Virus record (IMG/VR): IMGVR_UViG_2718218360_000002
Length of the DNA: 64,000 nucleotides
Direction: 5' to 3' (one strand)
DNA from: a virus
Lineage: Duplodnaviria > Heunggongvirae > Uroviricota > Caudoviricetes
The position numbers were made by a program. Below, piece by piece: positions 48,001 to 51,000 of this stretch; the stretch's first letter is position 1, and each line of letters starts with the position of its first letter.

Positions 48001-51000
48001 ATTCCACGGAACAAATCTCTTTTTGGTTGGAATTAACAATGAGCCTTATGTTCCTATGAAGCCTGTTGTTGAAGGTATGGGGATGGTTTGGGCTGCTCAA
48101 TTTGTTAAGTTAAAACAGAGGTTTGTCAAAGGTATTTCGGAAATCGAAATACCTTCTGCTGGCGGTAAACAGTTAATGACATGTCTTGCCTTTCGTAAAT
48201 TTGCGGCTTGGCTTTCAAGCATTCAACCAAACAAAGTCCGCCCTGAAATCCGCGACAAGGTAATCCAGTATCAGGAAGAGTGTGACGATGTGCTCTACGA
48301 GTACTGGACTAAAGGCCATGTGATTAACCCGCGCAAAGCTAAAAAGGCATTGCCGGGGAAAATCACCACTGAACAGCAGGAAGCCATTAAACAACTCGTC
48401 ATGAGTCGCGGTCAGTCTCTGCCAAAAGAAAAACAGGCGAAGGCGATGATCACCATGTGGTCGTCACTGAAATCTCATTTTGGGTGTTCATACAAAGAAA
48501 TCAGCGAGGAGCAGTTTACCGAAGCTCTGTCACTTGCTGCTCGCGTTCCGCTTGAAGGAGAGTTAATCGGCAAACAAGAGAAGAGCACCAACGAGCTTTC
48601 CGCAAAAGAAGCAAACAGCCTTGTATGGCTATGGGATTATGCCAACCGCTCACAGGCATTATTCCGCGAACTGTATCCGGCGCTAAAACAAATTCAATCG
48701 AACTATTCCGGCAGATGCTACGACTACGGTCATGAGTTCTCGTATGTTATTGGAATGGCGAGAGACGTTTTAATTAATCACACACGAGATGTTGATATCA
48801 ATGAGCCAGACGGACCAACGAATCTTTCCGCATGGATGAGACTTAAGAATAAAGAATTACCTCCTTCACCGCATCACTACTAACAGATTGCCAACGAAAT
48901 GACCCAGCTTCGGCTGGGTTTTTATCAGGAGTTCTCATGCTCTATAGCAATATATTGGCGCACGCCCGGCGATGTGCACCAGCGGAGTCGTGCGGCTTCG
49001 TGGTGAGAACGCCGGAAGGGGAAAGATATTTTCCCTGCGTGAATATCTCCGGTGAGCCGGAAGATTATTTCCGGATGTCGCCGGAGGACTGGCTGCGGGC
49101 AGAAATGCAGGGGGAGATTGTGGCACTGGTCCACAGTCATCCCGGTGGTCTGCCCTGGCTGAGCGAGGCCGACCGGCGGCTGCAGATAAAAAGTGCACTG
49201 TCCTGGTGGCTGGTCTGCCGGGGGGAAATTCATAAATTCCGCTGTGTGCCACATCTGACAGGACGGCGCTTTGAGCACGGGGTGACGGACTGTTACACGC
49301 TGTTCCGGGATGCCTACCATCTGGCGGGAATTGATATGCCGGATTTTGAGCGTGAGGATGACTGGTGGCGTAACGGTCAGAACCTTTACCTGGACAATAT
49401 GGCGGTCACCGGCTTTTACCGGGTGCCCCTGTCCTCTGCACAGGCGGGCGATATCCTGCTGTGCTGCTTTGGCGCATCGGTGGCCAATCATGCCGCCATT
49501 TACTGCGGCAACGGTGAACTGCTTCACCATCTGCCTGAACAACTGAGTAAACGGGAGAGGTATTCCGAAAAATGGCAACGACGAACGCATTCAGCCTGGC
49601 GTCACCGCCACTGGCACGTATCTGCCTTCACGGGGATTTACAACGATTTAGCCGCCGCCTCAGCCTGTACGTGAACACGGCAGCGGAAGCCATCCGTGCC
49701 CTGTCGCTGCAGATGCCGGGATTCCGCCGTCAGATGAACGAAGGCTGGTACCAGATACGTATTGCCGGTGATGACACGGCACCGGAGGCGGTGTACGCCC
49801 GTCTTCACGAACAGCTGGGTGAGGGAACGGTCATCCACATTGTGCCGCGACTGGCCGGGGCCGGAAAGGGTGGACTGCAGATTGTGCTGGGGGCGGCGGC
49901 CATCGTGGGGTCGTTCTTCACGGCCGGGGCATCAATGGCGTTATGGGGTTCAGCCCTGGCAGCCGGTGGTTTTTCTGCCACCACGATGCTGTTTTCACTG
50001 GGGGCCAGCATGATACTGGGCGGTGTGGCCCAGATGCTGGCACCGAAGGCAAAAACACCGGATTACCGCGCAACGGATAACGGCAGACAGAACACGTACT
50101 TTTCCTCACTGGACAACATGATTGCTCAGGGGAACCCGATGCCGGTGCCTTACGGTGAAATGCTGGTTGGCTCACGGCGAATCTCCCAGGACATCAGTAC
50201 CCGTGATGAAGGTGGTGACGGGAAGGTGGTGGTTATCGGGCGGCAGGCATAAAAGCGAAAAAATCCCGCAGTGACCGAAGGCTGCGGGAACAGAAAATGA
50301 AGATTAACCACAGGGAGTTTTGTTTTTATTGGCCCGAAAAAACTGTAACGCCCGGGAATGATATCTGCCACGGGGGCGTACAGAAAATGTGAAGAAATTC
50401 AGAAATTTTATTCCGTCATGACACAGGCACCCTCCGGGGTGCCTGTCGTTTTTGGGGCATAAACAGATTCAGACATCAGACATCAGACATCAGACAGGAG
50501 AGGGGGACCGAGTGGGTAAAGGTGGCGGCAGGGCACACACGCCGGTTGAGGCAAAGGACAATCTTAAGTCCACGCAGATGATGAGCGTGATTGATGCCAT
50601 TGGTGAAGGGCCGATTGAAGGTCCGGTGAAGGGGCTGCAGAGTATCCTGGTGAACAAAACCCCGCTGACGGACACGGACGGTAATCCTGTGATACATGGT
50701 GTGACCGCGGTCTGGCGCGCCGGGGAGCAGGAGCAGACACCACCGGAAGGCTTTGAGTCCTCCGGGGCGGAAACCGCACTGGGCGTGGAAGTGACGAAGG
50801 CAAAGCCGGTGACGCGCACCATTACGTCCGCGAACATTGACCGCCTGCGGGTCACCTTCGGGGTGCAGTCACTGTTGGAGACCACCTCAAAGGGCGACCG
50901 TAATCCCTCTTCTGTCCGACTGCTGATTCAGTTGCAGCGTAACGGTAACTGGGTGACGGAAAAGGATGTCACCATTAACGGCAAGACCACCTCGCAGTTT

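Follow-up and report, generated by a model that had tools for sequence, protein, structure and literature searches.

The 259-nt spacer that separates the tail genes I and J of a Shiga-toxin prophage (positions 50253-50511 of the 64,000-nt stretch of DNA analysed in this study, referred to here as the window) is another copy of a published small RNA (sRNA) cassette together with a low-polymorphism microsatellite. We consider it likely, with a probability of roughly 0.7, that this spacer represents a small "moron" cassette built of three functionally separate pieces: an antisense sRNA gene, a sense-strand terminator and the leader of gene J.

The borders of the spacer are defined by the open reading frames of the window and their stop and start positions. 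Gene I (49572-50252, plus strand; stop codon TAA at 50250-50252) encodes a protein with the Pfam domain Lambda_tail_I (E = 4e-16); phage and E. coli entries with the identical sequence annotate it as a tail assembly protein. Gene J (50512-53991, plus strand), encoding the tail tip/host specificity protein with Pfam GpJ domains, starts with GTG (50512-50514), a codon that aligns with the ATG of J in strain E2348/69; the ribosome-binding region (GGAGAGGGGGACCGA) and this start codon occupy 50497-50514. The annotated late operon of this region runs on the plus strand from the lysis genes to the effectors. In lambda, I and J abut, and the first-pass annotation was right to describe the intervening DNA of about 260 bp as an insert relative to that phage. 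The RefSeq annotation of phage 2851 begins J at a TTG (50452), which would turn any 7-bp slippage in the J leader into a frameshift switch. This longer frame was rejected, since it is open in the four-copy allele only and GTG 50512 lines up with the ATG at which J begins in other alleles.

What the spacer chiefly contains, and what the first-pass annotation overlooked, is a gene for a known antisense sRNA, of which the first hairpin is the terminator. The 8-bp stem of this hairpin had been recognized correctly, although its position (50276-50299) was about 10 nt off: the arms TCCCGCAG (50264-50271) and CTGCGGGA (50282-50289) form a structure spanning 50264-50289, with a predicted energy of -14 kcal/mol (z = -2.8 in comparison with shuffled sequences). 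The hairpin is preceded on the plus strand by a run of six A residues (50258-50263), i.e. U6 on the minus strand, and it is therefore a Rho-independent terminator for minus-strand transcription. Its stems are invariant and its loops variable among 66 unique spacers, and it lies directly 3' of gene I in 60/60 loci that had been located solely by a close allele of I. In the window the U-tail is found just past the I stop codon, which ends at 50252, and the sRNA is antisense to the tail genes. The whole gene comprises about 79 nt (50258-50336, minus strand), its 5' end being inferred from an alignment to the annotated PasB of E2348/69 and its 3' end corresponding to the U6 tail.

By its sequence, this sRNA belongs to a family that includes PasB of EPEC strain E2348/69 (Pearl Mizrahi et al. 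2021, PMC8550237; distribution study by Zhu, Shabalina and Storz 2026, bioRxiv 10.64898/2026.05.13.724894) and EcOnc22, EcOnc23 and EcOnc24 of the EHEC Sakai prophages Sp15, Sp14 and Sp11, respectively (Tree et al. 2014, PMC4104026). In global alignments the window sRNA is 75% identical with PasB and 72% identical with its counterpart in Sakai Sp15; the motifs AACUCC and AAUCUUCAU are common to all three, and the terminator arms are identical. PasB occupies the same place, between I and J, a few nucleotides past the I stop codon and in antisense orientation. According to the E2348/69 annotation, I ends at 1466255, the 3' end of PasB lies 6 nt further on (1466261) and J starts at 1466496. The coordinates of PasB are NC_011601 1466343..1466261 (minus strand), and its strand and northern probe (AATCCCGCAGTGATCGCGGAGCT, which covers the same terminator hairpin) are given in Table S6 of PMC8550237. 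The two loci also share the terminator stem TCCCGCAG/CTGCGGGA with its U-run, the motifs AACUCC and (U/G)AUCUUCAU, the box upstream of the sRNA gene and the sense-strand terminator. The identity over the RNA is only about 75%, and the loci differ in the region between the motifs and in the J leader, which in E2348/69 has an ATG start and lacks the heptamer repeat. The Sakai Sp15 spacer has the same cassette layout, with the box, the plus-strand terminator and a TCAGACA leader, but it carries a 5-nt deletion in the sRNA body and two heptamers instead of the four of the window. The sequence of the northern probe used for EcOnc22/23/24 is found in this Sp15 spacer, on the strand that is sense for the tail genes. 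The relationship between PasB and EcOnc22-24 appears not to be stated in the 2021 or the 2026 Pas paper.

Expression, size (about 83-85 nt) and Hfq dependence have been shown only for the homologues PasB and EcOnc22-24 (PMC8550237, PMC4104026), and expression of the window copy is predicted. The level of PasB changes in a delta-hfq strain by log2FC values of -6.8 and -2.4 (PMC8550237, Table S6), and the EcOnc22/23/24 RNA of about 85 nt is destabilised in delta-hfq (PMC4104026, Tables S2/S3C). A cmscan search of positions 48000-53000 on both strands (E up to 1) retrieved no Rfam match; therefore the cassette is not AgvB, AsxR, STnc100, Esr41 or a member of another curated family, and PasB is evidently absent from Rfam 15. 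AgvB and AsxR (RF02702 and RF02703) were considered as identities of the sRNA and rejected: both reside at the moron site downstream of pR' and not between I and J, and the window cassette is unrelated to them in sequence, as judged from the empty Rfam scan. What it shares with these and other morons of lambdoid late operons (lom, bor, sodC) is the structure of an autonomous promoter-to-terminator unit placed between two late genes; in other prophages sodC itself is found at the I-J junction.

Upstream of the sRNA gene we recognized a weak putative sigma-70 promoter (50342-50371, minus strand), consisting of a -10 hexamer TACAGT (50347-50342) and a -35-like sequence GTGGCA (50371-50366) with an 18-nt spacer. 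The start predicted from it (50335/6) agrees, by alignment, with the mapped 5' end of PasB. Seven variants of the -10 hexamer (TACAGT, TACTTT, TAGTGT, TAGATT, TAATGT, TACCGT and TACATT) occur among 19 module representatives, and all of them conform to TAnnnT; a consensus scan identified no strong promoter. The sRNA of the window would probably be made in the lysogen from a weak promoter of its own.

The box mentioned above, AAATGTGAAGAAATTCAGAAAT (50385-50406), resembles a binding site of CRP. This 22-bp site (TGTGAAGAAATTCAGA), with the core TGTGA-N6-TCAGA (50388-50403, centre 50395.5), matches TGTGA-N6-TCACA at 9 of the 10 core positions, and the same 9/10 match was observed in 69/69 unique modules, which had been retrieved by means of the terminator only. 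No variation occurs in the half-sites, in contrast to the middle of the 6-nt spacer between them, and the distance between the box and the -10 hexamer is fixed, without indels across the variants. Relative to a putative start at 50334-50336, the centre of the box falls at -59.5 to -61.5. The consensus match taken alone is weak evidence, because the window contains two such patterns against 0.72 expected (not significant); it is conservation and position that speak for the box. Spacers of the SodC type contain the sRNA terminator and body and lack the box. We infer that the box is a CRP site near -60, which would probably make the promoter cAMP-CRP dependent, with class I geometry. Spot 42 is repressed by CRP. 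Overnight cultures in LB contain more PasB than exponential cultures in DMEM, and Spot 42 shows the reverse, but stationary phase, RpoS or low oxygen would explain this difference between the media equally well.

As regards the targets of the sRNA, the conserved single-stranded motifs AACUCC and GUUAAUCUUCAU most likely serve to act in trans on mRNAs of the host or the prophage, and the RNA is also fully complementary to the I-J portion of any late transcript. Pairing in trans with the ribosome-binding site of J, suggested by an apparent match of CUCCCUGU and ACAGGAGAG, was rejected, because the duplex energies are not better than those of dinucleotide shuffles (the fraction at least as good being 0.46-0.49 for the window, E2348/69 and Sakai).

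It is hardly credible that the same segment encodes a small plus-strand protein. A candidate frame of 31 aa (50297-50392; ATG at 50297, product beginning MKIN...) is present, and most spacer types have kept ATGAAGATTAAC. However, the sRNA motif GUUAAUCUUCAU, which is read from the opposite strand, accounts for this conserved dodecamer. Spacer types differ by indels of 1, 4 and 5 nt that disrupt the frame just past its first codons, and the predicted products vary in both length and sequence. This small ORF was therefore rejected on account of its frame-breaking indels.

The second hairpin, proposed at 50422-50456 to be terminator-like with a T-run, deserves this description. The sense-strand intrinsic terminator (50423-50453, plus strand) consists of a stem-loop (50423-50446) with a 10-bp stem containing 7 G-C pairs and a 4-nt loop, and of five T residues (50449-50453) that start two nucleotides past the stem. 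Its predicted energy is -24 kcal/mol (z = -3.9), and none of 200 shuffled sequences folds as well. The terminator is kept in every spacer of the window, Sakai and E2348 types. One pair shows compensatory change (C-G replaced by U-A in locus L120 and by U-G in SCU-106) and there is one C-A mismatch; this covariation is not significant, as 293 of 500 shuffles do equally well. At the same place, a further spacer type (L144) has, as judged by eye from the sequence, an unrelated sense-strand hairpin followed by TCTCTTT. In the lysogen, the terminator most likely blocks Q-independent transcription into J, lom and the downstream effectors, while during lytic growth Q-modified polymerase would pass it. 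It is probably an insulator that is read through by the modified enzyme.

The same hairpin could instead be the 3' end of a second sRNA, read from the sense strand (approximately 50385-50456) and forming a divergent pair with the PasB-like gene. This block is the best-conserved portion of the spacer, and it has the usual make-up of an Hfq-binding 3' module, with an AU-rich stretch (AAAUUUUAUUCC) ahead of a strong hairpin and a U-run. Moreover, sense-strand peaks closer than 100 bp to a coding sequence were dropped from the Hfq-CRAC screen, so that such an RNA would have been missed. Nevertheless, we find this proposal quite unlikely. The scan yielded no promoter-like site on the plus strand, the possible -10/-35 matches are not conserved between spacer types, and no Rfam family matches the putative RNA. 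In loci with several sRNA modules the box is repeated without the hairpin, and the two are therefore separable. No I-J intergenic entry appears among the EPEC RIL-seq entries listed, but this is not informative.

The three-piece reading places the heptamer repeat in the third piece, the J leader. The repeat had been described as three perfect copies of CAGACAT plus two imperfect ones (50464-50497), which in another phase corresponds to an array of four TCAGACA units (50469-50496, plus strand; Tandem Repeats Finder, TRF) with a degenerate flank CAGAT (50464-50468). TRF detected it as the sole period-7 array in the 64 kb (4.0 copies, 100% matches), and, with 21 constrained positions, a perfect 28-nt array cannot be a product of chance. 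Its location upstream of GTG 50512, inside the J leader and ending 15 nt before the start codon, agrees with the initial description. The J leader (50457-50530), a CA-rich segment harbouring the TCAGACA microsatellite, is unusually unstructured (minimum free energy of -5.8 against -9.3 for shuffled sequences, z = +1.65). The array lies 3' of the plus-strand terminator and 5' of the GTG, where changes in its length alter neither a reading frame nor promoter spacing.

The number of heptamers varies among homologous prophages: two is usual, and three, four and five are rare, within an overall range of 0 to 5. Among 120 loci, 78 contain two copies, five contain three and another five contain four; the leader is repeat-free in 31 loci, and in one the repeat is broken by a single nucleotide polymorphism. 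Since copy number differs among prophages, the relatives do not show the invariant repeat number that the first-pass annotation had named as evidence against its proposal. Alleles with 5-7 copies were not found in IMG/VR; a single five-copy allele was a chance find (strain MDP9-27), and arrays of more than five units were not seen in the relatives examined. The metagenome collection yielded no match with at least three copies, and the collection with one genome per species yielded only a 460-bp contig of a Parendozoicomonas assembly, which is probably a contamination. Within the lineage of the window, 52 records match its 361-bp stretch at a level of at least 99% and have the four-copy length. 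Among complete E. coli genomes, one (strain HB6) carries three copies with flanks identical to those of the window and none carries five, among the best places per record in 5,426 complete genomes, which hold about 3,900 I-J places in all. The array probably grew by duplication and slippage, from one unit through two, three and four to five.

The first-pass annotation proposed that the heptamer tract is a slippage-prone knob whose changes in copy number modulate expression of the tail tip protein J. A perfect tandem repeat directly 5' of the J Shine-Dalgarno (SD) sequence, a copy number that ranges from 2 to 5 among prophages and the one contraction inside the lineage of the window speak for such a mechanism. 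Furthermore, removal of all copies in silico lowers the predicted accessibility of the SD sequence from about 0.65 to 0.2, and it is generally known that CA-rich leaders can boost translation (C/A-rich elements are cited in PMC4104026). We nonetheless regard this mechanism as unlikely. Arrays consist of just 2-5 units, near-identical flanks are associated with 52 records of four-copy length as against one genome with three copies, predicted accessibility is flat (0.61-0.72) for 1-7 copies, the spacing between the SD sequence and the GTG is unaffected by heptamer number, and repeat-free J leaders of the E2348 type work. This flat profile may be compatible with an influence of the repeat number on standby binding, S1 binding or mRNA decay. 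The distance between terminator and ribosome-binding site, also proposed as a control point, has no obvious role, because it is Q-modified polymerase that transcribes the late genes. The tract shares with contingency loci, which vary through slipped-strand mispairing, a perfect short repeat beside a surface/host-range gene and copy-number polymorphism. It differs from them in being very short (2-5 units) and non-coding, in leaving the promoter and the SD-start spacing intact, and in being nearly fixed in its lineage; it bears little resemblance to a contingency locus of the hypermutable kind. In the three-piece cassette the array would probably do no more than separate the terminator hairpin from the J ribosome site by unstructured sequence, neutral in effect, with its unit number behaving as a slowly changing lineage marker and not as a switch.

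Approximately 15% of the sampled loci contain 2-4 tandem sRNA modules with different seed regions. In these arrays the CRP-like box is repeated with every sRNA module, while the plus-strand terminator is not. A far-reaching interpretation would make the I-J junction in lambdoid prophages of STEC and EPEC a dedicated landing pad for an sRNA cassette under CRP control, which can be amplified to tandem arrays of 2-4 modules with diversified seed regions. The sRNAs would target host mRNAs in trans and the late I-J transcript in cis, coupling production of J to carbon status, and the heptamer tract would set J translation stepwise. We consider this composite scenario very unlikely.

Taken as a cassette of three separate pieces, the finding is largely known, since it combines a prophage sRNA gene that had already been published with a terminator and a short microsatellite, and the I-J spacer is not a new regulatory switch worth chasing. 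Apparently new with respect to the Pas papers is the link by which PasB of EPEC and EcOnc22/23/24 of EHEC become one family residing at one I-J site. The CRP-like box, invariant in every module and placed as in class I promoters, offers a testable hypothesis for the timing of sRNA synthesis, and heptamer number (2, 3, 4 or 5) provides a cheap marker of prophage lineage. Finally, tandem modules with diverse seeds would account for some of the reported diversity of PasB in copy number and sequence.

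The lambda-type tail genes I (49572-50252) and J (50512-53991), both recognised through Pfam and both on the plus strand, are separated by a spacer of 259 nt (50253-50511), in agreement with the ~260 bp given in the first-pass annotation. The segment at 50200-50560 is 100% identical in the Stx2-converting phage 1717 and phage 2851 of E. coli O157:H7, and 99.7% identical in several further Stx phages. The late region of phage 2851 (lysis, terminase, head, tail, I, J, lom, tail fibre and T3SS effectors) is encoded entirely on the plus strand. According to the phage 2851 annotation, the tail operon also contains, between the L-like and K-like genes, genes for an Arc-like repressor and an Ant anti-repressor (47716-48883), which constitute another late-operon moron. 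A tandem repeat at 38947-39539 (162-bp unit, 3.7 copies, 97% matches) presumably codes for repeated domains of a head or tail protein.

An 8-bp-stem hairpin noticed earlier in the spacer does exist, but its true position, 50264-50289, is ~10 nt away from the one originally assigned (dG -14 kcal/mol, z = -2.8). With AAAAAA (50258-50263) just before it and no T-run behind it, it is a terminator of the minus strand, a property that the first reading overlooked. This terminator directly follows I in 60/60 IMG/VR loci picked solely by their close I allele. The sRNA PasB of EPEC E2348/69 has been located at NC_011601 1466343..1466261 (minus strand, 83 nt; northern probe AATCCCGCAGTGATCGCGGAGCT; Table S6 of Pearl Mizrahi et al. 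2021, PMC8550237). These coordinates fall between the end of the tail assembly gene (1466255) and the start of gpJ (1466496) in E2348/69, so that PasB occupies the I-J spacer on the strand opposite to the tail genes. The window spacer can be aligned with that of E2348/69 over its length, which places the PasB 3' end on the window A-run and the 5' end near 50336. The I-J spacer of the Sp15 prophage of EHEC Sakai is also homologous, and the northern probe used for EcOnc22/23/24 (GGGAGAGAACGATGAAGATTAAC...; Tree et al. 2014, PMC4104026) represents its tail-sense strand. The EcOnc22/23/24 RNA (~85 nt, destabilised without Hfq; PMC4104026) is thus antisense.

Since PasB and EcOnc22-24 occupy homologous I-J spacers and are both antisense, they are, judged by sequence, one family, of which the window holds a predicted third variant. 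The latter shows 75% identity to PasB and 72% to EcOnc22-24, and shares with both the terminator arms, AACUCC and AAUCUUCAU. No Rfam family matches this cassette, which by position, orientation, terminator and sequence can be placed in the PasB/EcOnc22-24 family. It would function like a lambdoid moron. Among the single-stranded motifs of the sRNA, the best conserved, GUUAAUCUUCAU (minus strand), is the exact complement of AUGAAGAUUAAC (50297-50308, plus strand), which resembles a start codon followed by three codons (M-K-I-N) and may indicate that the RNA targets a translation-initiation region. A small plus-strand ORF with the MKIN start was rejected, as indels between spacer types break its frame; its first codons are conserved because the sRNA motif lies on the other strand. 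Pairing of the sRNA in trans with the J ribosome-binding site (SD) was no better than chance.

The promoter side was analysed in alignments of 66 unique spacers, 9 more divergent spacers from BLAST hits, and 19 representatives (<90% identity) of the sRNA module (terminator, body, -10 region and CRP-like box). The stretch that links the sRNA body to the conserved block beyond it varies in sequence in these alignments, but is free of indels throughout. All seven -10-region variants seen in the module alignments retain a minus-strand TAnnnT hexamer, in the window TACAGT (50347-50342, minus strand), with a weak -35-like GTGGCA 18 nt upstream. We infer that these form the sRNA promoter; they predict a start at 50335/6, where the PasB 5' end also maps. 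Upstream of this candidate promoter lies a CRP-like box, AAATGTGAAGAAATTCAGAAAT (50385-50406), whose TGTGA and TCAGA halves are invariant, while the 6-nt spacer between them is variable in its middle part. The consensus of CRP sites is TGTGA-N6-TCACA, and invariant halves around a variable middle are the conservation pattern that a CRP site would produce. A 9/10 match to this consensus was present in 69/69 unique modules found through the terminator alone, 117-134 nt downstream of the terminator-stem start. The box centre (50395.5) is 59.5-61.5 bp from the predicted start, which would correspond to the class I position of CRP, as at lac. The CRP pattern occurs twice in the window (0.72 expected), which is not significant alone. 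PasB levels in static overnight LB cultures exceed those in exponential DMEM, while the level of Spot 42, which is CRP-repressed, is five-fold higher in DMEM; this contrast could circumstantially favour the CRP reading, although growth phase could explain it equally well.

Some spacers contain several such modules. That of JNEC-KY175 (686 bp; retrieved locus L136, 126-813, NZ_AP045171.1) carries three in tandem, each with a terminator, variable body, -10 region and box, connected by ~65 nt resembling relics of the I 3' end; MDP9-27 (locus L135, 1-836, NZ_CP146515.1) has at least four. The modules within these arrays differ in the body or seed region. Of the 108 IMG/VR loci whose upstream sequence was long enough, 92 contain one box and 16 contain two to four (two in 7, three in 2, four in 7). 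The box is repeated with every sRNA module, whereas the sense-strand terminator and heptamer leader are single and adjoin J; the box is therefore part of the sRNA gene, and not of J.

The terminator-like hairpin with a T-run described in the first-pass annotation was confirmed: its stem (50423-50446; dG -24 kcal/mol, z = -3.9) is followed by T5 at 50449-50453. It is found in window-type, Sakai-type and E2348-type spacers; covariation was not significant (one stem position is C-G, U-G or U-A, plus one C-A mismatch). In another spacer type (locus L144, 2340-2400) an unrelated sense-strand hairpin, AACCCCGGTATC...GATACCGGGGTT, followed by TCTCTTT, was seen by eye between the sRNA module and J, which hints at a need for a sense terminator ahead of J and suggests its convergent retention. 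The second hairpin might instead end a sense-strand sRNA, which the CRAC screen would have filtered out, having removed sense peaks <100 bp from a CDS; however, no promoter for it is apparent on the plus strand, and the box and this hairpin are separable. Because lambdoid late transcription depends on a Q-modified, terminator-resistant polymerase, the most economical reading of 50423-50453 would be a candidate insulator, stopping Q-independent transcription into J, lom and the effector genes in the lysogen.

The heptamer repeat is likewise real: TRF identified TCAGACA x4.0 (100% matches, 50469-50496) as the sole period-7 array in the 64 kb, ending, as previously stated, 15 nt before GTG 50512. 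Its copy number is not invariant across homologous prophages (2, 3, 4 and 5 copies were seen). Of 120 homologous loci, 78 have two copies, 5 three, 5 four and 1 a SNP-broken array; in the other 31, J starts with ATG behind a different leader that lacks the repeat and reads AACAG-TTATCACA-GTAAAGGG..., which suggests one ancestral unit, later duplicated. Scanning for 3 to 7 copies yielded only 3 and 4 in IMG/VR and none in metagenomes; MDP9-27 carries a 5-copy allele. A search of the 5,426 complete E. coli genomes with the 361-bp stretch of the window gave 52 records of >=99% identity, implying four copies. A 3-copy query with identical flanks perfectly matched one of these genomes, strain HB6, and a 5-copy query none (best, 4-copy loci at 97.5%); slippage therefore occurs, but rarely. 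In a one-genome-per-species collection, the sole match to a 25-nt anchor was a 460-bp contig (L126, NZ_FWPT01000051.1) of the Parendozoicomonas haliclonae assembly; as this species is a marine bacterium, the E. coli prophage sequence among its contigs is probably contamination.

It had been proposed that such slippage could modulate J expression. RefSeq annotates J of phage 2851 from TTG 50452, across the T-run and array (50452-50511), but this TTG is in frame in the 4-copy allele only and out of frame in 2-copy alleles. GTG 50512 aligns with the ATG start of other alleles and with the J start in PGAP-annotated E. coli genomes, e.g. E2348/69, and the TTG start is almost certainly an over-extension. 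The array is non-coding, copy number leaves the SD-GTG spacing unaltered, and, in predictions that include the upstream hairpin, the SD is unpaired with a probability of 0.61-0.72 at any copy number from 1 to 7, falling to 0.2 with zero copies only. Moreover, the locus fails contingency-locus tests. Tuning of J by heptamer number thus has a low probability, and we regard the number of units as a lineage marker that is close to neutral. Of 200 shuffles of the leader (50457-50530), 197 are more structured than the leader itself, which fits an open, CA-rich spacer that would hold the terminator hairpin away from the ribosome site.

In the published accounts of PasB and EcOnc consulted we found no statement of the equivalence of PasB and EcOnc22-24, the heptamer polymorphism, the CRP-like box or tandem module arrays; the Pas papers among them make no mention of tandem sRNA-gene arrays at the I-J site. 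These additions are incremental, not surprising, and the cassette itself belongs to the already known PasB/EcOnc22-24 family. In the L139 locus (2180-3050; IMG/VR UViG_2511231131_000009) and ~20 similar ones, the PasB-like terminator and body are retained, and the promoter-upstream part with the CRP-like box is replaced by a minus-strand gene between the sRNA and J, which we take from its translated ORF to encode a Cu/Zn superoxide dismutase (SodC-like). The I-J junction thus serves as a general insertion site for morons.
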